DNA of 64,000 nt. Source: Candidatus Shapirobacteria bacterium (GTDB lineage Bacteria > Patescibacteriota > Microgenomatia > UBA12405). Below, in pieces: positions 2,231 through 59,258 of the stretch. The notes under the pieces are model-generated. The model saw nothing but the letters and a program-made list of their open reading frames with translations. It was not told the DNA's origin and made no database searches. The position numbers and the translations under genes were made by a program. Each line of letters begins with the position of its first letter. Positions within the stretch are counted from its first letter, which is position 1. Location of the stretch: assembly GCA_030698565.1 (NCBI GenBank), contig JAUYJS010000008.1:289275-353274 (forward strand), in the 5' to 3' direction.

Positions 2231-4135
2231 ATGAACGACATCCTCAATGGACTTAATCCCAAACAAAAAGAAGCCGTCACTCACATAGGCACTCCCCTTT
2301 TACTTTTAGCCGGAGCCGGTTCGGGCAAAACTCGGGTATTAACTCACCGGGCAGCCTATTTCATTAAAAACGGATTAGCCAAATCGGGAGAAGTTTTACT
2401 TTTAACTTTTACCAACAAGGCCGCCAGCGAAATGAAAGACAGGATGGAAAAACTTTTGGATCAAAAAATAACCAAAAACGACAAGAATAATCAAAACATA
2501 TTTGCGGGTACTTTTCATTCTTTTTGCTGCAAAACATTGAGAACCGATGGTGGATTTTTAGATATTCCTTCTAATTTTTCTATTTACGATACTGATGATC
2601 AGGAAAATTTAATCAAAATAATTTTACATGAAATGGATTTAACTCCAAAAGAATTTAAGCCAAGTAGTGTTCTTTATTTTATTGAAGCCGCCAAAAATAG
2701 TTTCCAAACACCCAAAGAGATGGAACCTCAAAGTAGCGGTTTTTGGCAATCAACTGCTGTCAAAATTTATCACCGCTATGAACAAAAAATAAAAGAATTT
2801 CATTCGTTAGATTTTAATGATCTTTTGTTTAAAACCGTCGAGCTTTTTATTAAAGAACCAGCCGTCTTGGAAAAATATCAGGAAATCTACAAACATATTC
2901 TTATTGATGAATATCAGGACACCAATCAAATTCAATACCTTTTAACCAAACTTTTAGCTAAAAAATACCAACAAATTACTGCTGTCGGCGATGCCTCTCA
3001 GGCAATTTATGGTTGGCGTGGGGCTGACTTTCGCAACCTAATTAGTTTTACCAAGGATTTTAATGGCTCTAAAACCATAAATTTAGAGGAAAATTATCGT
3101 TCCACTCAAATAATTTTAGATGCCGCCAACGCCGTTATTTCCAAAAATAATTCACATCCGGTTTTAAAGCTTTTTACAAAAAAAATGTCAACAGACAAAA
3201 TCATAATAATGGAAGCCGAATCGGAAGTAGCCGAGGCGGATTTTGTAGCCGAAAAAATTAAATTTATTTACGATAATTTAAAGGTTCCTCTTAAAAATAT
3301 TGCTATCCTTTATCGCATGAATGCCCAATCCCGTGCGCTGGAAGAAGCCATGTTGCGCCAGGGAATTCCATATGTTCTACTGGGCGGCACCAGATTTTAT
3401 GAGCGGGCGGAAATCAAAGATATTTTGGCCATGCTCCGCTTTACCAACGACCAGGCCGACAAGATTTCCGAAGATAGGGTCGAAAAAGCTTTGGGTAAAA
3501 GAAAAAAAGTCACTTTTGATAATTTGATAACTACCTTAAACATCAAAGAATTAAGCTCGTTAGAAATTTTGGAATCAATAGTTGTTGATTCTGGATATTT
3601 AGACAAGTACGACCCCAAAGACGAAGAAGATCAAAAGCGAATCGAAAACATTAAAGAACTAAAATCAGTCGCCGCCTCGCATCCGGATTTAATTGAGTTT
3701 TTGGAAAACATAACTCTAGTTCAGCACGAATATTCTCTCCAGGAGAAAAATAAAAAGAAAGAAAACAAAGAAGGTGTCAGATTAATGACTCTTCATGGTT
3801 CCAAAGGCCTAGAATTTGACGCGGTCTTTTTGGTGGGTTTTGAAGAAGGAATTTTGCCCCATTCTCGGTGTTTTGTAAATGAATCCGAAGTCGAAGAAGA
3901 AAGAAGATTGTGTTATGTTGGTATCACCCGAGCCAGGGATTTACTTTATATTACCTATGCCAGTCGTCGTCTTTATTTTGGCAAAAGTAGTCTCAATGAA
4001 CCAAGTCGATTTTTAGTCGAAATACCCGCCCAATTGGTTGAATACGAAGAATATAAAAGTAGTGTTCGGGATTATCGCCATAAACCCAAAAACAACGAAG
4101 CGGATGATTTTATATATGATGCTGATATATACTAA
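2231..4135 (+). CDS. pcrA: ATP-dependent DNA helicase PcrA/UvrD (SF1)
   Basis: Walker A GAGSGKTRVLTHR, helicase motif DEYQDTN, the LHGSKGLEFD and YVGITRA motifs, and typical length. Confidence 0.9.
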   Translation: MNDILNGLNPKQKEAVTHIGTPLLLLAGAGSGKTRVLTHRAAYFIKNGLAKSGEVLLLTFTNKAASEMKDRMEKLLDQKITKNDKNNQNIFAGTFHSFCCKTLRTDGGFLDIPSNFSIYDTDDQENLIKIILHEMDLTPKEFKPSSVLYFIEAAKNSFQTPKEMEPQSSGFWQSTAVKIYHRYEQKIKEFHSLDFNDLLFKTVELFIKEPAVLEKYQEIYKHILIDEYQDTNQIQYLLTKLLAKKYQQITAVGDASQAIYGWRGADFRNLISFTKDFNGSKTINLEENYRSTQIILDAANAVISKNNSHPVLKLFTKKMSTDKIIIMEAESEVAEADFVAEKIKFIYDNLKVPLKNIAILYRMNAQSRALEEAMLRQGIPYVLLGGTRFYERAEIKDILAMLRFTNDQADKISEDRVEKALGKRKKVTFDNLITTLNIKELSSLEILESIVVDSGYLDKYDPKDEEDQKRIENIKELKSVAASHPDLIEFLENITLVQHEYSLQEKNKKKENKEGVRLMTLHGSKGLEFDAVFLVGFEEGILPHSRCFVNESEVEEERRLCYVGITRARDLLYITYASRRLYFGKSSLNEPSRFLVEIPAQLVEYEEYKSSVRDYRHKPKNNEADDFIYDADIY

Positions 4136-39819: not shown

Positions 39820-41952
39820 ATGGTTCAAGAAAAAAAACAGGAAATTTTAATTGGTAGCAAGAAAGTCATTTTATCAACTGGAAAATTAGCTCCACAAGCC
39901 AATGCTGCCGTCACTGCCCAATACGGCAATACTATTGTTTTGGCCACTGTTGTCATGGGAAAAGTTGATAGAACCAAAGATTATTTTCCTCTTTCACTTG
40001 AATTCATGGATAAATTTTATGCCGGTGGTATTGTTAAGGGCGGTAAGTGGGTAAAAAGAGAGACTAGTCCTTCGGACACAGCCGTTCTTTTTGGTCGAAT
40101 TATTGACCGATCTGTTCGTCCTCTTTTCCCAAATGGTTTTCAAAATGAAGTCCAAATTATCATCACTATTTTAAGTAACGACAAAGAAAACGACGTTATT
40201 ATACCTAGTTTCTTAGCCGCTTCAGCAGCCCTTTCCATTTCCAATATTCCTTTTAATGCTCCAGTTTCAGCTGTTCGAGTTGGATTAATTGACGGCCAAT
40301 TAGTCGTCAATCCTAGCTTAAGCGATCTAGAGAAATCCCAAGTCGACCTTTTGGTTTGTACTGGATCCGAGGGTATCAACATGATCGAAGCTGCCAGTAA
40401 TATCGTTGACAACGACACTATGATTAAAGCCATTGAATTGGCCAAAACCACAACTGATGATGTTAACAAACAATTAGTTGAATTTGCCAAAAGCTTTGCT
40501 TGTAAAAAAGTTGAATTTGAAATAGTATTGCCCTCAGAAGATTTACAAAACGAAGTCGAAAATTTAATCAAAGACGACGTCCTTAAATTTTTAGAAAATG
40601 GCGGCGAAGATAATCATAGTAGTGGTCAAGATGCCATTAAAGACAAGGTTAAAACAGCTTTTGAAGCCAAAATTAAATCTGAAGAAGTTTCTGAAAATAT
40701 TTTGGTTCAAGCCGCCGACAATGTTATCAAAAAATATTTCCGTACCAGAACTTTAGCGGGTACCAGATTTGACAAGCGTCAATACGACCAACTTAGAGAA
40801 TTAAATACAGAAGTTGGGATATTACCTTGCACTCACGGTTCAGCTATTTTTCAAAGAGGTTTAACTCAAGCTTTGACAGTCACCACTCTTGGTACTCTTG
40901 CTGACAAACAATACCTAGAAGATTCTTTAGGTGAAAGTTCCAAAAGATACATTCACTTTTACTCTGCTATGCCTTTTTCTACCGGTCAAACTGGTAGAGT
41001 CGGCCGACCGGGCAGAAGGGAAGTTGGACACGGTGCTTTGGCTGAAAAAGCCCTACTTCCAGTCATTCCTTCCGAAGATGAATTTCCATATACAATCGTA
41101 TTAACCTCTGAAGTTTTATCTCAAAACGGTTCCTCTTCAATGGCTTCCACTTGTGGTTCCACCCTGTCTCTTATGGACGCCGGTGTACCTATCAAGGACA
41201 AAGTTGCTGGAATTTCAGTAGGTATGGTTTCAGATGACACAAAATATATTTTGTTAACCGATATTGCTGGTATTGAAGACCACAACGGCGACATGGATTT
41301 CAAAATCACTGGTACTAGAACTGGAATTACTGCCATCCAATTGGACATCAAACGTCAAGGTTTGACCATGGATATGATCAAGGACACTTTTGTTGCCAGC
41401 ACCAAAGCCAGACTCCAAATCTTAGATAAGATTGACGAAACAATGACTGTCCCAAGAGATCACGTTTCCGCTTTTGCTCCAAAAATAAAAATAGTTAAAT
41501 TACCTGAAGATAAAATTGGTGAAGTTATCGGTAGCGGTGGTAAAACTATCAAGGGATTAATGGAGAAATACCAAGTTCAAATCGATATTGATGACTTCGG
41601 TAGTGCTTCTATTTCATCCTTAGATCAGGAAAGTATTGACAAAGCTGCTTATGAAATCGAATCAATGATCAAAGAAATTCAAATCGGTGAAGAATACGAT
41701 GGTGTTGTTACTCGAGTTGAAAACTACGGTGCCTTTGTTGAATTTTTACCAGGCAGAGAAGCTTTATTGCACGTATCTGAATTATCTGGCGGATTTTTAG
41801 CTAGCCCAGCTACCATAATTAAGGTTGGTGACAAGATTCACGTTCGTGTCTCTGGTTTCAACGATAATCATCAAATAAAATTAGCAGCTCCAGAATTCAA
41901 AGCTCTTCACCCAGGTGAAGCCAGACCTCAACAAGGTAACTATAATCGATAA
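39820..41952 (+). CDS. pnp: Polyribonucleotide nucleotidyltransferase (PNPase)
   Basis: Two RNase PH domains, KH and S1 C-terminus, 710 aa, following rpsO. Confidence 0.95.
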   Translation: MVQEKKQEILIGSKKVILSTGKLAPQANAAVTAQYGNTIVLATVVMGKVDRTKDYFPLSLEFMDKFYAGGIVKGGKWVKRETSPSDTAVLFGRIIDRSVRPLFPNGFQNEVQIIITILSNDKENDVIIPSFLAASAALSISNIPFNAPVSAVRVGLIDGQLVVNPSLSDLEKSQVDLLVCTGSEGINMIEAASNIVDNDTMIKAIELAKTTTDDVNKQLVEFAKSFACKKVEFEIVLPSEDLQNEVENLIKDDVLKFLENGGEDNHSSGQDAIKDKVKTAFEAKIKSEEVSENILVQAADNVIKKYFRTRTLAGTRFDKRQYDQLRELNTEVGILPCTHGSAIFQRGLTQALTVTTLGTLADKQYLEDSLGESSKRYIHFYSAMPFSTGQTGRVGRPGRREVGHGALAEKALLPVIPSEDEFPYTIVLTSEVLSQNGSSSMASTCGSTLSLMDAGVPIKDKVAGISVGMVSDDTKYILLTDIAGIEDHNGDMDFKITGTRTGITAIQLDIKRQGLTMDMIKDTFVASTKARLQILDKIDETMTVPRDHVSAFAPKIKIVKLPEDKIGEVIGSGGKTIKGLMEKYQVQIDIDDFGSASISSLDQESIDKAAYEIESMIKEIQIGEEYDGVVTRVENYGAFVEFLPGREALLHVSELSGGFLASPATIIKVGDKIHVRVSGFNDNHQIKLAAPEFKALHPGEARPQQGNYNR

Positions 41953-41971
41953 TTCAAGGTATACTTTTTAA

Positions 41972-43033
41972 ATGAGATCTAGTTTAGTCACGTCGGATCA
42001 GGCGATTGATAAGTTAATTGTCAAAACCGAAACGGCAAATTTACCCGCAGGTTTAGAGGAAAAAGTCGACGAAATTTATTCCCAATTAAAACTAAATTCC
42101 AAGGCCCCTGAAATATTTTGGGAAAGTTATGAAAGAGTCGCCAAATATATTGACTGGGTAGTTAAACTACCTTGGGAAAAATCCAGCAAAGATATTTTGG
42201 ATATAAATTACGCCAAAGAAAAACTAAACGAGGGTCATCATGGTTTGACCGATATCAAAGAAAGACTTTTGGAGTACATTTCAGTCTTAGCCTTGCAAAA
42301 AGCCCGTAATCCAGAAAAAGATATCCGGGCGCCTATTTTACTTTTTGTTGGCTTAGTTGGTACTGGCAAAACTACCATGGCTCAGTCTATTGCTCATGTA
42401 TTAAACCGCGAATTTGTCAGAATCCCATTTGGTGGACTAGGAGATCCGGCTTATTTAAGGGGTATCTCCAGAATTAACCCCGAATCAGAACCAGGCCAAA
42501 TAATTAAAGCCTTAATTTCAGCCAAAACAAAAAACCCAGTAATTCTTTTAGATGAAATTGATCGTGTGGCTGATGAAGCCCTAAACACAGTTATGGGTGT
42601 GTTGGTTGAGCTTTTAGATCCGGAACAAAATCATAAATTTACTGATAATTACATTGATTATCCTTTTGATTTATCCCAAGTTTTATTTTGCGCCACTTGC
42701 AACAACACGACTCGAATTGCTACCGCTGTTATGGACCGTCTCGAACCAATTCAAATGCCTTCTTATAATGACGAAGAAAAAATTGCCATTGGTCGTGATT
42801 ATATTTTGGGTAAGGCCATAACCGAAGCTGGTCTGACTTCTCAAGAGTTAAAAATTAGCGACAGTGTTTGGCCCCAAATAGTTCGTCCGCTTGGATTCGA
42901 TGCTGGCGTTCGTACTCTAAAGCGCAATATCGAAGGTCTGTGCCGCAAGGTTGCCAAAATGATTTTTGAAGGCCAAGTCACCCAAGTAGCCATTGATGAG
43001 ACCAATATTAAACAATATCTACCTCAATGGTAA
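41972..43033 (+). CDS. Lon-family AAA+ ATPase module without the N-terminal LAN and C-terminal protease domains
   Basis: Aligns with the Lon ATPase core (LLFVGLVGTGKTTMAQSIA...FVRIPFGGLGD...LLDEIDR...LDPEQN...F.D.Y...DLS.VLF.AT.N). The ORF ends after the alpha-helical subdomain, and the next gene is rnj. Confidence 0.7.
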   Translation: MRSSLVTSDQAIDKLIVKTETANLPAGLEEKVDEIYSQLKLNSKAPEIFWESYERVAKYIDWVVKLPWEKSSKDILDINYAKEKLNEGHHGLTDIKERLLEYISVLALQKARNPEKDIRAPILLFVGLVGTGKTTMAQSIAHVLNREFVRIPFGGLGDPAYLRGISRINPESEPGQIIKALISAKTKNPVILLDEIDRVADEALNTVMGVLVELLDPEQNHKFTDNYIDYPFDLSQVLFCATCNNTTRIATAVMDRLEPIQMPSYNDEEKIAIGRDYILGKAITEAGLTSQELKISDSVWPQIVRPLGFDAGVRTLKRNIEGLCRKVAKMIFEGQVTQVAIDETNIKQYLPQW

Positions 43034-43250
43034 AGTATGAAAATTAAATTAAATAAACACAATTTGCCTTTTTCAAAAGACTCTGCTAAACTTTCACATA
43101 AACTTTTGGACCCGGTAACTTTGAATAGGATCCTTGATAAAATTATTAGTCATACTCATAGACAGATTAATTTCAATCTCTACTGACCTAAAAAAACTGG
43201 TCCCTATTTTGGGCTAGTTAAAAGTTTTAAAAATTATTAAAAATTAAATT

Positions 43251-45014
43251 ATGAACAATCAAAATATTGATCAAAACAAAGTGCCTCAAAACTTTTCTAA
43301 AGCAAAGCCCCAAGTTAGGGAATTTAGAAAAAATTATGATTCAGTTAGAATTTCTGCCCTAGGAGGCTTTGGTGGTGTGACTCAAAACATGTACGCCTAC
43401 GAATATATACCCAACGGCGATACTAGTAAAAGCCAAATAATTATTGTCGACTGTGGCGTTGGCTTTCCCGAAGAAGATGCTTTTGGTGTCGATTTACAGA
43501 TTCCCGACACTCATTATCTTGAAGACAAAAAAGACCGAATCTTGGGTATATTTATTACTCACGGCCACGAAGACCACATTGGCGCAATCAGGTTCATCTT
43601 GCCTATTTTAGGCAAAGAAATTCCGATTTATGCGCCCAAATTGGCGGCTGCATTTATAGAATCCAGATTGAGCGAAATTAGCATGCAATCCAATCTTCAC
43701 GTTTATGAAGATAACACCCCTCCAATGGTCAAGGGCCATTTTACTGTTGATCCTATTCGCGTAACCCACTCAATTCCCGACACTTATCATTTTGCTATCA
43801 CTACACCGATTGGTATTATTTACCATGGTTCTGATTTTAAATTCGACCTTTTCCCATTAGATGGCAAAGGTGTCGATTATCGACATATTGCCCGCATTGG
43901 TGAAAAAAAAGTTCTAGTTTTATTATCAGATAGTTTAGGTTCCGATCACGAAGGTTATTCTCCTTCAGAAAGTTCCATTGCAGAACACTTTAAAAGAGAA
44001 ATTGTTGGAGCCAAAGGTAGGGTATTTGTTACCTCGATCTCCAGCAATATTGTTCGTTGGAGTCAAGCGATTGAATACGCCAAGGGTAGTGGTAAAAAAA
44101 TAGTAGTTGTTGGATTTTCAGTTGAAAAAGCAATTAGTATCGCCAAAGACTTAGGTTATCTAAAATTAAATGACAATGATATTATTCCGGTCGATAGAGC
44201 CAAAAATTTTCCTGATAGCAAATTACTTTTTTTAGTAGCCGGCTTTGCCGGTCAACCCGATTCGGCTTTAAGTAAAATGGTAATGGGTAAACATCGGATT
44301 AAAATAAAATCTGGCGACAAAGTTATCTTTTCTTCTCCTGATTATATTCCAGGTACAACTTCAAATATTTACAGCATGATCGATGTCTTATCTAAAATGG
44401 GTGCCGAGGTTTCTTATGGTGAAAAGGAAGAACTTCATGTGTCCGGTCATGGTTACCAAAAAGAACAGGCTCTCCTCATTAGCCTTTTAAGTCCTAAATA
44501 TTTACTCCCAATCGGCGGTAATTATCGTCATCAAAAAAGTTACCAAACAATGGCAAAATCTTTGGGTTATCCAGAAGAAGACGTAATTACTCCAGATTAT
44601 GGTACTTCGGTTACTTTTAATGGTAATGGTAGTTATGATACTTCTTTCCATATTCCATTAAGAAAGATATTGATTGACGGTTTGGGTGTAGGCGATGTTG
44701 GTACTACGGTTTTACGAGATCGTAAATTACTCGCTGGCGACGGTATGTTCTCAGTTGTCTTGCTCATAAACGGACAAACGGGTGAATTAACCAAAGATCC
44801 TGTAATTCTAAGTCGCGGATTCGTTTTTATGAAAGAAAATACCGAATTGATGAATTTTATAAAACAGGAAGTTGTTAATAAATTCAAAGAATCAACCAGT
44901 GCTCCGGCTAATTTTGATTTTATACGCGAACAAATTCAAGCTTATATCGAAAGCATAATTTACGAAAAAACCGGCCGCCAACCAATGGTTTTGCCGTTGG
45001 TAATTGAGGTATAA
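43251..45014 (+). CDS. rnj: Ribonuclease J (metallo-beta-lactamase/beta-CASP)
   Basis: RISALGGFGGVTQNMYAYEY, ITHGHEDHIGAI, 587 aa. Confidence 0.9.
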   Translation: MNNQNIDQNKVPQNFSKAKPQVREFRKNYDSVRISALGGFGGVTQNMYAYEYIPNGDTSKSQIIIVDCGVGFPEEDAFGVDLQIPDTHYLEDKKDRILGIFITHGHEDHIGAIRFILPILGKEIPIYAPKLAAAFIESRLSEISMQSNLHVYEDNTPPMVKGHFTVDPIRVTHSIPDTYHFAITTPIGIIYHGSDFKFDLFPLDGKGVDYRHIARIGEKKVLVLLSDSLGSDHEGYSPSESSIAEHFKREIVGAKGRVFVTSISSNIVRWSQAIEYAKGSGKKIVVVGFSVEKAISIAKDLGYLKLNDNDIIPVDRAKNFPDSKLLFLVAGFAGQPDSALSKMVMGKHRIKIKSGDKVIFSSPDYIPGTTSNIYSMIDVLSKMGAEVSYGEKEELHVSGHGYQKEQALLISLLSPKYLLPIGGNYRHQKSYQTMAKSLGYPEEDVITPDYGTSVTFNGNGSYDTSFHIPLRKILIDGLGVGDVGTTVLRDRKLLAGDGMFSVVLLINGQTGELTKDPVILSRGFVFMKENTELMNFIKQEVVNKFKESTSAPANFDFIREQIQAYIESIIYEKTGRQPMVLPLVIEV

Positions 45015-56195: not shown

Positions 56196-57166
56196 TGAAA
56201 AAAGTTTTAGTCATTATTACTATTCTGGATTTAATCGCTGGAAGCGCTGGACTTTACTTAGTTTTAAGCAACAAACCCGTCTCACCTGTTTTTAAAAATC
56301 AAGTCTTTGTTATTAATCAGGGTGAAAGTGTCAATTTAATTGGCCAAAGATTAAAAACTAACCATCTAATTAAAAGCTCCCACACCTTCCTTTTTTATTC
56401 TTATGTTTTAGGATTAAACACCAAACTCCAAGCCGGCACCTTTAAACTTTCTCCATCCTTAACCACCCGGGAAACTTTGATCAAATTATCAAAAGGCGGT
56501 AGTCATGATTACTGGCTTAAAATAAAAGATGGTTCTCGGATCGAAGAGATATCTGCACTTTTTGAAGACAACGCCAGTATTACTCCAAAAGATTTTATAG
56601 ATAAAGCCAAAACCAAAGAAGGGTACCTTTTTCCTGACAGTTACCTCGTCCCTCAATACTTTACTGTCGATCAAATTTTAGATATTGTCAATAAAAATTT
56701 TTTTCAAAAGTTTGTAGAAGCCCAAAACAATAAAACTAATTTGCAACTTTCCGATAAAGAAATTATAATTTTAGCCTCTCTCTTAGAAAGAGAAGGCAAG
56801 AGTTTAGAATCAAAACAAATAATTGCTGGTATTTTATTAAACAGGCTGGATCTTGGTATGCCATTACAGTTGGACGCCACAGTTCAATTTGCTCGCGATT
56901 CTAAATTACCTCACCCTAAAACTTATTGGCTTCCTTTAGAAAAAAGTTTAATTAGTAATATTGACTCACCGTTTAATACTTACAAATATCCAAATTTACC
57001 ACCATCTCCAATTTGCAATCCTGGATATAACTCCCTCTTTGCTGCTTTTCATCCAACTACGTCCGACTACCTTTTTTACATAACCGGCACCGATGGTCAG
57101 ATGTACTATGCCAAGACCCTCCCCGAGCACAATCAAAATATCCAAAAATACTTGAGAGCTATTTGA
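56195..57166 (+). CDS. mltG: Endolytic murein transglycosylase MltG (YceG family)
   Basis: N-terminal TM and the YceG-like motifs LASLLEREGK, GILLNRL, LQLDATVQFA, NTYKYPNLPPSPICNPG. Confidence 0.8.
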   Translation: MKKVLVIITILDLIAGSAGLYLVLSNKPVSPVFKNQVFVINQGESVNLIGQRLKTNHLIKSSHTFLFYSYVLGLNTKLQAGTFKLSPSLTTRETLIKLSKGGSHDYWLKIKDGSRIEEISALFEDNASITPKDFIDKAKTKEGYLFPDSYLVPQYFTVDQILDIVNKNFFQKFVEAQNNKTNLQLSDKEIIILASLLEREGKSLESKQIIAGILLNRLDLGMPLQLDATVQFARDSKLPHPKTYWLPLEKSLISNIDSPFNTYKYPNLPPSPICNPGYNSLFAAFHPTTSDYLFYITGTDGQMYYAKTLPEHNQNIQKYLRAI

Positions 57167-57224
57167 CAATCCCTGCAAAATTTTCCACAATAGAGTGTTC
57201 TTTAATGTGCAAATAGTTTTATTA

Positions 57225-57410
57225 ACAAGAGCGTGTGGTCCTGCTTTGCAGGAATACGAGGAGGGAGTCCCTTGCTTTGCAAGGGAAATCGGACCTTCAC
57301 AATATATGTGAAGAGTTATCTGCGGAAACTCCCAGGTGGCAACTGCCACCTAAATGTCTTTTTTAAAACTTTGGAGTAATCCAAAACCTAAAGAGAAGAC
57401 AATCAGTTAC
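57225..57410 (+). ncRNA. Candidate glmS ribozyme (GlcN6P-responsive self-cleaving riboswitch) in the glmS leader
   Basis: 319-nt non-coding gap upstream of glmS. Its segments ACGAGGAGGGAG ... CUGCGGAAACUCCCAGG ... UAAAUGUCUUUUUUAAAACUUUGGAGUAAUCCAAAACCUAAAGAGAAGACAAUCA parallel B. subtilis glmS core segments (GACGAGGAUGGAGG, CGGCGGAUGCCUCCCGG, UAAGGAUUUCUUCAAACCAAGGGGGUGACUCCUUGAACAAAGAGAAAUCA). The comparison is recalled from memory. Confidence 0.55.
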
Positions 57411-57485
57411 TATTTTCACCCAAGAACATCAGTCTTTAGCTTTACTGTGTATTTAATTATTGTAAAACTAACGGACCAATGTCAT

Positions 57486-59258
57486 ATGTGTGGAATTTTT
57501 GCTTATAAAGGCTCCAGCTTAAACGCAGCCGATGTTATTTCTTCTGGTTTAAAACGATTGGAATATCGAGGATATGATTCGTGGGGTGTAGCTGTAATTA
57601 ATAACGGTTCTATTTTATTGAAGAAAGATATCGGAAAAATAGGGGATATAAATAAATTAGATCTACCAGTCAGTAAATTAGGTATCGGTCATACCCGCTG
57701 GGCTACCACCGGCGCCGTTACCCAAATTAATGCTCACCCGCACCTTTCTTCCGACCACTCTTTTGCCTTGGTCCAAAACGGTATTGTAGAAAACTTTGAA
57801 GAATTAAAAGAAGATTTAAAAAATAAAGGTTATAAATTTATTAGTCAAACCGACACCGAGGTAATCGTTCGCCTAATCGAAGAAGAAAAAAAAATCCACC
57901 CCGATTTAGTTGATGCAATTAAATCCGCATTTCTTAAATTAAAAGGCAGAAATACAATTGCTGTTTTAGACTCTAAAACAGAACAAATATTGGCTGTTCG
58001 CAATGGTTCTCCGTTAATTATTGGATTAAGTAAAAACAAAGACATATTTTTATCGTCCGATGCTCTATCCCTATCTTCTTTTGTTGATAAGATTATAGTT
58101 TTAGACAACGGCGAATTAGTAAAGATCGGATCTAAAATAGAAATTAAAAATATAAAAACTGGCAAAATAGTCCATAAAGACTGGGAAAAATTAACCTTTA
58201 AGGATGCAAATATAGACAAAGGTAAATATGATAATTATATGATTAAAGAAATTTGCGACACACCAGAAACAATCAACCAAGTAATTGTACAGGATGAAAA
58301 AAATATTCAAAATTTAGCCAAAGCCATTAAAGCTGCTCGTTATGTTTTTACAATTGGTTCCGGCACTGCTGGCAATGCCGCTGGCCAAATCGCTTTTTAT
58401 CTTCGCGAAATTGCCAAAATTCCGGCCATAAGTTTAATTGGTGCTGACGCCAAGGAATATTATGATTTATTTTCAGAAAAAGATCTTCTTATCGCTCCAT
58501 CTCAAAGCGGAGAAACAGCCGATGTTGTCGAGGTATTGGATATAGCCAAAGCCAAAGGATGTAAAATTGCCACTTATGTAAATATGCCTGGGAGTATGAT
58601 GAACCGTATGTCTGATTTTAAATTTTTAGCCAACGCCGGTCCGGAAATCTGTGTCATGTCGACCAAAATTTTTGTCTCGCAAGTCGCCTGGGGTTATTTA
58701 CTGGCCAAGACAACAGTTGGTCTGTACGAAGATGGAATTAATAATCTTTCGAAATTAGCGGCAGACATTAAAACTTATTTAGAAGAAGACACTTCTCACC
58801 AAGCCGCAAAAAAACTGGCTCAAAATTTAATAGAAATTAAAGACCTTTTTATATTAGGTAAATCCCAAAATTTTTATATTGCCAAAGAGGGCATGGTCAA
58901 AATAATTGAGGGCACATATAAACACGCCCACGCTATTCCCGCTGGCGATTTAAAACATTATGCTATTACATTAATAGAAAGAGGAGTGTATGCTTTAGCA
59001 CTTGTTTCCAACGACAGTTCCTTCTCTGAGATGTTTAATGTTGTCAATGAAATTAAATCTCGTGGTGGCAGTATTATTGGAATTTATCCAGAAAAATTAC
59101 CTGCTTTCGATTATTATTTAAAATCCCCATCTATTGGCGAAACCAGCGCCATCGGCAATATAATTCCTCTTCAACTTTTAGCCTATTATTTGGCTGTATT
59201 GTTGGGGAACAACGTCGACAAACCCAGAAACATCGCCAAATCAGTAACAGTGAAATAA
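57486..59258 (+). CDS. glmS: Glutamine--fructose-6-phosphate aminotransferase (true start at MCGIF; the ORF-track start at 57354 lies inside the leader RNA)
   Basis: MCGIFAYKG N-terminal nucleophile Cys, two SIS domains, C-terminal ...VDKPRNIAKSVTVK. Confidence 0.93.
   Translation: MCGIFAYKGSSLNAADVISSGLKRLEYRGYDSWGVAVINNGSILLKKDIGKIGDINKLDLPVSKLGIGHTRWATTGAVTQINAHPHLSSDHSFALVQNGIVENFEELKEDLKNKGYKFISQTDTEVIVRLIEEEKKIHPDLVDAIKSAFLKLKGRNTIAVLDSKTEQILAVRNGSPLIIGLSKNKDIFLSSDALSLSSFVDKIIVLDNGELVKIGSKIEIKNIKTGKIVHKDWEKLTFKDANIDKGKYDNYMIKEICDTPETINQVIVQDEKNIQNLAKAIKAARYVFTIGSGTAGNAAGQIAFYLREIAKIPAISLIGADAKEYYDLFSEKDLLIAPSQSGETADVVEVLDIAKAKGCKIATYVNMPGSMMNRMSDFKFLANAGPEICVMSTKIFVSQVAWGYLLAKTTVGLYEDGINNLSKLAADIKTYLEEDTSHQAAKKLAQNLIEIKDLFILGKSQNFYIAKEGMVKIIEGTYKHAHAIPAGDLKHYAITLIERGVYALALVSNDSSFSEMFNVVNEIKSRGGSIIGIYPEKLPAFDYYLKSPSIGETSAIGNIIPLQLLAYYLAVLLGNNVDKPRNIAKSVTVK

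Follow-up and report, generated by a model that had tools for sequence, protein, structure and literature searches.

The glmS ribozyme is, to our knowledge, the only known self-cleaving riboswitch that depends on a cofactor. In Bacillus subtilis this cofactor is glucosamine-6-phosphate (GlcN6P), which brings about self-cleavage of the glmS leader, and the product with a 5'-OH end is then degraded by RNase J1 (PMC5473149, PMC6765202, PMC10810187). The ribozyme of this organism is built around a double-pseudoknot core, accompanied by P3/P3.1 and by a GNRA loop, L4, that docks on G-C pairs within P1 (PMC11602151). Other RNAs act on the same pathway elsewhere: a hepatitis delta virus (HDV)-like ribozyme is found upstream of glmM in Faecalibacterium prausnitzii, and in Enterobacteria the small RNAs GlmY and GlmZ control glmS (PMC6765202). 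Here we deal with a stretch of 64,000 nucleotides, referred to as the window, from a Candidatus Shapirobacteria bacterium (contig JAUYJS010000008.1), a member of the Candidate Phyla Radiation (CPR), in which the leader of glmS appears to harbor a glmS ribozyme of its own. The HDV-like glmM ribozyme and GlmY/GlmZ provide feedback in the same pathway but have folds and mechanisms unrelated to those of the window RNA, which matches the glmS ribozyme family of Rfam (RF00234) only.

The gene upstream of glmS encodes MltG/YceG (TIGR00247) and ends with a TGA at 57164-57166, and the Met-Cys start of glmS, ATG-TGT, is found at 57486-57491. The two are separated by 319 nt (57167-57485), which an initial annotation, made from the letters of the sequence, had described as non-coding and as the seat of a candidate glmS ribozyme. 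The motifs that it quoted are all present at the positions given, with ACGAGGA at 57256-57262, GGGAG at 57263-57267 and GCGGAAACUCCCAGG at 57322-57336; the 3' half spans 57352-57404. When the whole window was scanned with Rfam 15, the candidate was borne out. RF00234, which has a gathering score of 37, matches the leader with 60.9 bits (E 1.4e-11), and the match spans positions 1-167 of the 167 in the model and is not truncated; a permissive local scan (E<=1) returned RF00234 with an E value of 1.8e-13 and no other Rfam family. This is the sole Rfam match above gathering score in the 64-kb window. The match is on the same strand as glmS, which is complete, and ends 74 nt before the Met-Cys ATG. 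It departs from the model in a very short P1 loop and in a 49-nt insertion in the P2 loop, where the model has 10 nt. Together with the evidence described below, this argues that the 319-nt gap holds a genuine glmS ribozyme in a form that belongs to the CPR lineage, and it is with high confidence that we read the element overall as a functional-looking glmS ribozyme in the glmS leader.

The window RNA is able to form all of the helices in the model, P1, P2, P3, P4 and P4.1, as well as the pseudoknots P2.1 and P3.1 (Table 1), and the pairings were verified by script. The initial annotation had seen in the 5' half a core with two extra hairpins and in the 3' half a likeness to the P3-P4 domain. 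Both descriptions agree with the alignment, in which the 5' half contains the P1/P2 core with the hairpins inserted in the P2 loop and the 3' half holds P3-P4/P4.1. It had also placed an AGAGCG cleavage motif at about 57227; this motif occupies 57228-57233, and the predicted scissile bond is A57230|G57231. The GCGGA core at 57322-57326 is invariant in 19 relatives. The last pair of P2.1 varies, being C:G in the Rfam consensus, G.U in the window, A:U in L059, L163 and L172 (GCGCA), and U:A in L176 (CGUU/AGCG). L4 is GUAA in the window, with GCAA as its counterpart in L049 and L052, and two C-G pairs of P1 are invariant. As far as sequence can tell, these features would suit a contact between L4 and a P1 receptor such as that described for B. 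subtilis (PMC11602151).

With the ribozymes of Firmicutes, such as those of B. subtilis, B. anthracis and Thermoanaerobacter tengcongensis, the window RNA shares its location in the 5' untranslated region of glmS, the A|GCG cleavage motif, the ACGAGGA and GCGGA segments, P1, P2, P2.1, P3/P3.1, P4/P4.1 and a GNRA L4, together with the presence of an RNase J gene in the genome. It differs from them in P2.1, which is CGUG/UGCG rather than CGCC/GGCG, and in a very short P1. To the Firmicutes archetype it adds two hairpins, A and B, in the P2 loop/P2a, and a predicted outer helix, P0, which joins a leader segment lying 13-35 nt before the cleavage site to the sequence directly after P3.1. The host differs too, in that it is a CPR bacterium nearly devoid of Shine-Dalgarno (SD) sequences. 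By every criterion that can be applied to a sequence, the element is an ordinary member of the known family RF00234, within which its peripheral features may set it apart as a variant subclass.

The helices were assessed in a MAFFT alignment of 19 subfamily sequences (A1), with controls in which pairing partners were slid by 1-3 columns or in which the alignment was shuffled 500 times. Standard pairs fill 91.4% of cells, compared with 40-58% with slid partners. Changes on both sides are found at 25 pairs, compared with 10.5 in the shuffles, none of which (0/500) reached the observed value. P2 and P4.1 are paired in 100% of cases, with compensatory changes at 4 of 5 and 5 of 6 pairs, respectively; the corresponding values are 96% and 6 of 7 for P4, 98.7% and 2 of 4 for P3.1, and 92% and 3 of 5 for P1. 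Two sequences, L043 and L160, are mis-registered in the leader part of A1, and beyond column 250 the alignment is loose, so that the counts for P0a and P5, a hairpin that follows the ribozyme, understate their pairing. RNAalifold, run unguided, predicts the same helices, with compensatory changes at 23 of 45 pairs. Among 93 members of the wider family, a P3 loop forms better pairing with the tail of the same RNA than with foreign tails (z -7.7; 0/20000 permutations as good).

The nearest relative, L042, has a GlmS that is 96% identical, and its intergenic region is identical to that of the window bar seven point changes and two blocks. In these blocks P1 and hairpin A have been swapped wholesale for other hairpin-forming sequences, a difference that looks like block replacement, perhaps by recombination, rather than stepwise compensatory change. 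The swapped blocks are 57239-57253 and 57268-57286 in the window and 3881-3901 and 3914-3934 in L042. Pairing survives the point changes that fall in P3, in P3.1 and in the outer stem of P5, and the change of G57462 to A, in the inner stem of P5, breaks a pair. Judged by sequence comparison, these patterns show the predicted glmS-ribozyme fold to be under purifying and compensatory selection.

The nearest named GlmS proteins are from Candidatus Shapirobacteria (63-64% identity), followed by Daviesbacteria and Levybacteria, which places the window in a Microgenomates (CPR/Patescibacteria) genome. Of 11 related loci, 9 (L042-L045 and L048-L052) have an RF00234 match upstream of glmS, with scores of 52-88 bits, which fall into 71-88 bits for those without the insertion and 52-59 bits for those with it. 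The full local gene order of the window, sortase, RuvX, small open reading frame (ORF), MltG, intergenic region, glmS and MiaB is kept in L043-L045, and in L042 up to the end of the contig; parts of it are kept in L049, L051 and L052, and L048 and L050 have a different neighbourhood. The CPR ribozymes of Shapirobacteria-type genomes that harbor no insert (L043, L045, L048, L050 and L051) have the same core as the window, GCGUGUGG, AAUCG and AUCUGCGGAAAC, and share with it P0, the P5 hairpin and the promoter spacing. Three of them, L043, L045 and L051, also share the arrangement from RuvX to MiaB around the ribozyme, whereas L048 and L050 do not. They differ from the window in that hairpins A and B are absent, in that P0b is AAAUGGC/GCCAUUU rather than AAAUAGU/ACUAUUU, and in that P3.1 is GAUUG/CAAUU rather than AACU/AGUU.

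Further afield, the ribozyme is also found in two other genomes, one from Daviesbacteria (L175, 47.7 bits) and one with the label Parcubacteria (L176, 51.4 bits). Another Daviesbacteria locus has no ribozyme and an intergenic region of just 16 nt, and a Levybacteria locus, in which glmS is operonic, has none either. No RF00234 match was found in any of 37 loci of distant GlmS relatives (38-45% identity; Peregrinibacteria, Gracilibacteria and others), which came from a GlmS scan with one genome per species and act as a negative control unsuited to covariation. The distribution within the CPR, with the element present in L175 and L176 and absent from these other loci, is therefore wide but patchy. 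A search of viral contigs for glmS ribozymes of the Firmicutes type, directed at P0 outside the CPR, gave two matches, both of them GC-rich false positives in coding sequence.

A broader view of the family was obtained by scanning metagenome contigs for the core pattern ACGAGGA-N(6-36)-AATCG-N(4-34)-ATCTGCGGAAAC, which returned at least 120 stretches, 110 unique ones being listed. Around 100 of the listed sequences have a GCGUG-type cleavage motif upstream and, in nearly all cases, ATG-TGY-GG 82-280 nt downstream; around five are GC-rich false positives. The compact form is found in only about 25 of the listed members, and the rest have hairpin A, usually accompanied by hairpin B. Among the matches listed, a single hairpin is the fold of 72 of 73 distinct inserts at the A site, with medians of 8 bp and z -4.3, and of 67 of 68 distinct inserts at the B site, with medians of 8 bp and z -2.9. 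Because most listed members carry such inserts and these fold as single hairpins, the two extra hairpins of the window are a common architecture of the CPR family. In some members, including L067, L068, L091, L136 and L146, a short single hairpin (for example GGCUCAUCUGAAAAGGAUGCGCC) appears to replace P4/P4.1; these members retain P3.1 and the leader-tail helix.

This leader-tail helix, P0, is found outside the Rfam model. In the window it consists of 7 bp (57196-57202/57422-57428) and a further 11 bp that include one C.U mismatch (57207-57217/57409-57419), and when the full leader is folded, the minimum-free-energy structure includes it. RNAalifold predicts P0b without guidance, with two compensatory pairs that distinguish the P0b of relatives from that of the window, as given above. 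The P0 sequences of other subfamilies differ widely, as in AAAGCGA/UCGCUUU and GAAGCUUA/UAAGCUUC. In an alignment-free comparison, duplexes between a leader and its own tail have a mean energy of -16.3 kcal/mol, and those with foreign tails -12.2 kcal/mol. With 35-62 non-redundant representatives, clustered at 70-80% identity (60% leaves just 6), the contrast between self and non-self gives z values of -8 to -11, and 0/20000 permutations were as good. Composition-preserving controls were added to allow for a possible correlation in GC content between leader and tail; these give a mean z of -1.45 (p 4e-9), with z below -2 in 19 of 57 representatives. The own tail also beats its own reversed sequence in P0 pairing (p 1e-5). 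P0 is found as well in L175 and L176, both of which were identified via the protein and not the DNA pattern. As a predicted helix, P0 is statistically supported across the family.

The start of glmS itself needs to be considered, as a mechanical list of ORFs has the frame open from an ATG at 57354, which would give a protein of 634 aa. In N-terminal-nucleophile (class II) amidotransferases the catalytic Cys must be N-terminal once Met is removed. Residues M1-C2-G3-I4 of E. coli GlmS (PDB 4amv) align with residues 45-48 of the 634-aa ORF, more than 100 GlmS homologues are only 585-593 aa in length and begin with MCG, and the ATG at 57354 lies inside P4. The Met-Cys ATG at 57486 is therefore the true start of glmS and the one at 57354 an artefact, as the initial annotation had held. 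The contrary explanation, that the 634-aa ORF is real and that the 3' half of the ribozyme codes for an N-terminal extension, can draw on the open frame and on a database protein, P0001 (96% identical), that has the same over-long call of 634 aa, with an extension that reads into the ribozyme. The 44 additional codons have no counterpart in the alignment with solved GlmS structures, which begin to align at residue 45 with M1-C2 at M45-C46, and the match to P4/P4.1 with its compensatory changes reflects constraint on the RNA and not on codons. On this comparative evidence a coding extension is excluded, and we accord it next to no chance. Several database entries for CPR GlmS proteins are likewise 25-45 residues too long, at 634 (P0001), 637 (P0057), 632 (P0067), 632 (P0116) and 614 aa (P0095). 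In L175, which encodes P0067, around 400 nt separate the ribozyme from a TTG-TGT start downstream, and an ORF has been called on the opposite strand between the two.

Two further explanations would deny the element a present function. Nothing other than general caution favors the view that an AT-rich intergenic region resembles the glmS model by chance; the E value, the recurrence of matches at the same genomic position in relatives and the strong covariation rule this out, and its probability is vanishingly small. For a decayed relic, which would no longer cleave or regulate in this reduced genome, one can cite the differences between the core and the consensus of Firmicutes (GCGUG and not GCGCC, UACGAGGA and not GACGAGGA) and the large insertion, which lowers the score to 60.9 bits, compared with 84-88 in some relatives. 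Yet these departures are invariant across the roughly 100 listed members and are compensated, as seen for P2.1 with CGUG/UGCG and its A:U and U:A variants, compensatory changes are found at many positions in the helices, and L042 keeps its pairing despite wholesale replacement of stems. Since constraint is seen even between near-identical strains, a relic is very unlikely. A number of points nevertheless weigh against a functional glmS ribozyme as we have described it. The 49-nt insertion costs around 25 bits relative to relatives without the insert, the P2.1 of the window includes two G.U pairs, and where the consensus GACGAGGA begins with G the window has U, a position that varies between U, G and A across the CPR family. 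P0 is not universal, with z above 0 in 12 of 57 non-redundant members, and its presumed role in protecting the 5' end depends on the predicted start of transcription. Cleavage, ligand and decay route are all assigned by homology, and with so few SD sequences (2/44 ORFs) the competition between ribosome and RNase J that operates in B. subtilis may differ here.

The proposed mechanism begins at a putative promoter, TTGACA/CACAAT, from which transcription would start near 57197. The predicted start, about 57197-57199, coincides with the base pairs that open P0, and a TTGACT/TTGACA box is found at the same upstream distance in 8 of 9 relatives. The RNA would then fold, as sequence and covariation show, into the double-pseudoknot core of P1/P2/P2.1, propped by P3/P3.1 and P4/P4.1 and joined by the two lineage-specific hairpins of the P2 loop and the outer helix P0. 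When abundant, GlcN6P, the product of GlmS, would bind as a cofactor and, by homology, promote cleavage at A57230|G57231. The downstream fragment, with its 5'-OH, would be degraded in the 5'-to-3' direction by RNase J, as in B. subtilis, and the synthesis of GlmS would thus be shut off by negative feedback. An RNase J gene is indeed encoded at 43251, where the initial annotation had placed it (TIGR00649, 455 bits compared with a cut-off of 400). More tentatively, the uncleaved mRNA would have a paired 5' end, and cleavage would disconnect the protective P0 structure from the message. In Gram-positive bacteria a paired 5' end protects mRNA against 5'-end-dependent decay.

The mode of translation has a bearing on this scheme. 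An SD sequence (GGAG/GAGG-type, no more than 18 nt from the start) is found for 2 of the 44 ORFs of at least 150 aa in the window; the upstream regions of the long ORFs are A/U-rich, glmS is without an SD, and translation initiation in this genome seems to be largely SD-independent. Structure at the start site could matter in such a genome, and it has to be asked if GlcN6P, once sensed, acts mainly on translation, through the freed 3' strand of P0, which would pair (UUUCAC) with the start region (GUGGAA) and block initiation. The minimum-free-energy fold of the cleaved product does pair 57414-57419 with 57491-57496. However, shuffled sequences match the initiation region just as well as the P0 3' strand does (mean z of -0.21 for the subfamily and of 0.04 for 83 family members), and the 5' fragment would stay bound through the 18-bp P0 once cleavage had occurred. 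Masking of the start codon in this way was therefore rejected and is, in our estimation, hardly credible; decay by RNase J remains the preferred outcome of cleavage.

The contribution of P0 to that decay can be framed by known protective elements. In Gram-positive bacteria 5'-terminal stem-loops and SD-like 5' stabilisers, such as those in the ermC and aprE leaders and the STAB-SD of cryIIIA, guard mRNAs from RNase J. P0 resembles these elements in that it is predicted to begin at the transcription start or within a few nt of it, with the 5' end base-paired, which is a functional analogy only. It differs from them in that it would be detachable by ribozyme cleavage. P0 may bury the 5' end of the uncleaved mRNA and clamp the ends of the ribozyme together. 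It is possible, albeit doubtful, that the CPR ribozymes constitute a subclass in which P0 encloses the ribozyme and buries the 5' end, in which two hairpins brace P2 in most members, and in which cleavage acts doubly. We would suggest only tentatively that cleavage in such a subclass both creates a 5'-OH entry site for RNase J and removes a 5' protective element, which would be P0 here and an SD-like stabiliser elsewhere. Alternatively, within the same subclass, P0 could keep the 5' product docked and so permit re-ligation. No description of P0 or of its detachment logic for glmS ribozymes was found in the literature searched.

In many other subfamilies the leader has a GGAGG-like motif 28-33 nt before the cleavage site; the motif is present in 24 of 93 members, compared with 11.3 +/- 2.7 in shuffles, and could act as a 5' stabiliser that is removed by cleavage. 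Its bearers include L053, L055, L056, L057, L061, L063, L085, L132 and L170; the window is without it. The motif is concentrated where the start of glmS has an SD (13/19, compared with 11/74 elsewhere).

Table 1. Features of the glmS leader and of associated genes, in positions of the window
Feature	Positions	Strand	Basis or remarks
RNase J family ribonuclease, presumed degrader of the 5'-OH product	43251-45014	+	TIGR00649, 455 bits (cut-off 400)
Putative sigma-70-type promoter	57163-57191	+	TTGACA 57163-57168, 17-nt spacer, CACAAT 57186-57191; consensus scan, 10/12 matches
P0, 5' strand	57196-57217	+	P0a 57196-57202, P0b 57207-57217; leader upstream of cleavage site
glmS ribozyme	57219-57411	+	RF00234, 60.9 bits (gathering score 37)
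Predicted cleavage site, A(-1)/G(+1)	57230-57231	+	AAGA|GCGUG 57227-57235, placed by alignment with A|GCG, which is invariant in the Rfam consensus
P2.1 pseudoknot	57232-57235 / 57321-57324	+	CGUG/UGCG; two G-C and two G.U pairs
P1 hairpin	57239-57253	+	UCCUGC-UUU-GCAGGA, 57239-57244 / 57248-57253; Rfam alignment, shorter than consensus
Core segment ACGAGGA	57256-57262	+	Invariant in 19/19 subfamily members; equals upper-case Rfam consensus
P2	57263-57333	+	GGGAG 57263-57267 / CUCCC 57329-57333; hairpins A and B, AAUCG and AUCUGCGGAAAC lie within
Extra hairpin A	57268-57286	+	8 bp, UUU loop, -11.6 kcal/mol; between P2 5' strand and AAUCG; absent from Rfam model
AAUCG between hairpins A and B	57287-57291	+	
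Extra hairpin B	57293-57316	+	CUUCAC/GUGAAG and 2 basal pairs; extends P2a
Core segment AUCUGCGGAAAC	57318-57329	+	Contains P2.1 3' strand; subfamily-invariant, aligned to consensus gCGGaUGc
P3 hairpin	57334-57351	+	Loop AACU 57341-57344 with AGUU 57405-57408 forms the P3.1 pseudoknot
Upstream extension of the glmS ORF, 44 codons, non-coding	57354-57485	+	Overlaps P4, P3.1, P0 and P5
P4	57355-57401	+	57355-57361 / 57395-57401; encloses P4.1
P4.1	57370-57385	+	57370-57375 / 57380-57385; GUAA (GNRA) loop L4 57376-57379
P0, 3' strand	57409-57428	+	Directly after P3.1 3' strand; fold, RNAalifold, pairing check
Hairpin P5, between ribozyme and start codon	57432-57476	+	In uncleaved and cleaved predicted folds; pairs verified
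glmS coding sequence, 590 aa, Met-Cys-Gly-Ile	57486-59258	+	TIGR01135, 502 bits (cut-off 418); N-terminus equals E. coli residue 1

The initial annotation had proposed that metabolite-responsive ribozyme control of glmS is hereby extended to a reduced lineage. This stands in so far as no paper linking glmS ribozymes to the CPR or Patescibacteria was found in the literature searched, but not as a first record, as databases very probably list such CPR matches already, given that the standard Rfam model detects the element. By analogy with the characterized systems, the glmS ribozyme would also control amino-sugar synthesis in ultra-small, host-dependent CPR bacteria, for which few regulators are known. 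It would likewise represent a natural ligand-controlled RNA element from within the Patescibacteria, a group for which inducible expression tools are lacking and for which a 2024 review mentions riboswitches only as promising prospective tools (PMC11665869). The approximately 100 listed members, with their hairpins and leader-tail helix, form a natural experiment on the peripheral support of the glmS core. A recurring error in gene starts, whereby GlmS is called 30-45 residues too long where the ORF runs into the ribozyme, is also corrected.

Some smaller features of the region complete the description. P5 ends 9 nt before the ATG and has no terminator-like U-tract; subfamily relatives have at the same site a hairpin of other sequence, GCCGGnUUUUU...AAAAAnCCGGC. 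A terminator-like match at 57334-57351 is the P3 hairpin followed by the U-rich strand of P4, and not a terminator. On the minus strand a 117-aa ORF with a GTG start (56996-57349), which lies opposite the last part of mltG and the 5' half of the ribozyme, is very likely spurious. Finally, a 710-aa ORF at 39820-41952 is polynucleotide phosphorylase-like by eye, and RNase J is encoded two genes downstream of it; if the ORF does encode polynucleotide phosphorylase, the region 39820-45014 of the window would constitute a small RNA-decay gene cluster.

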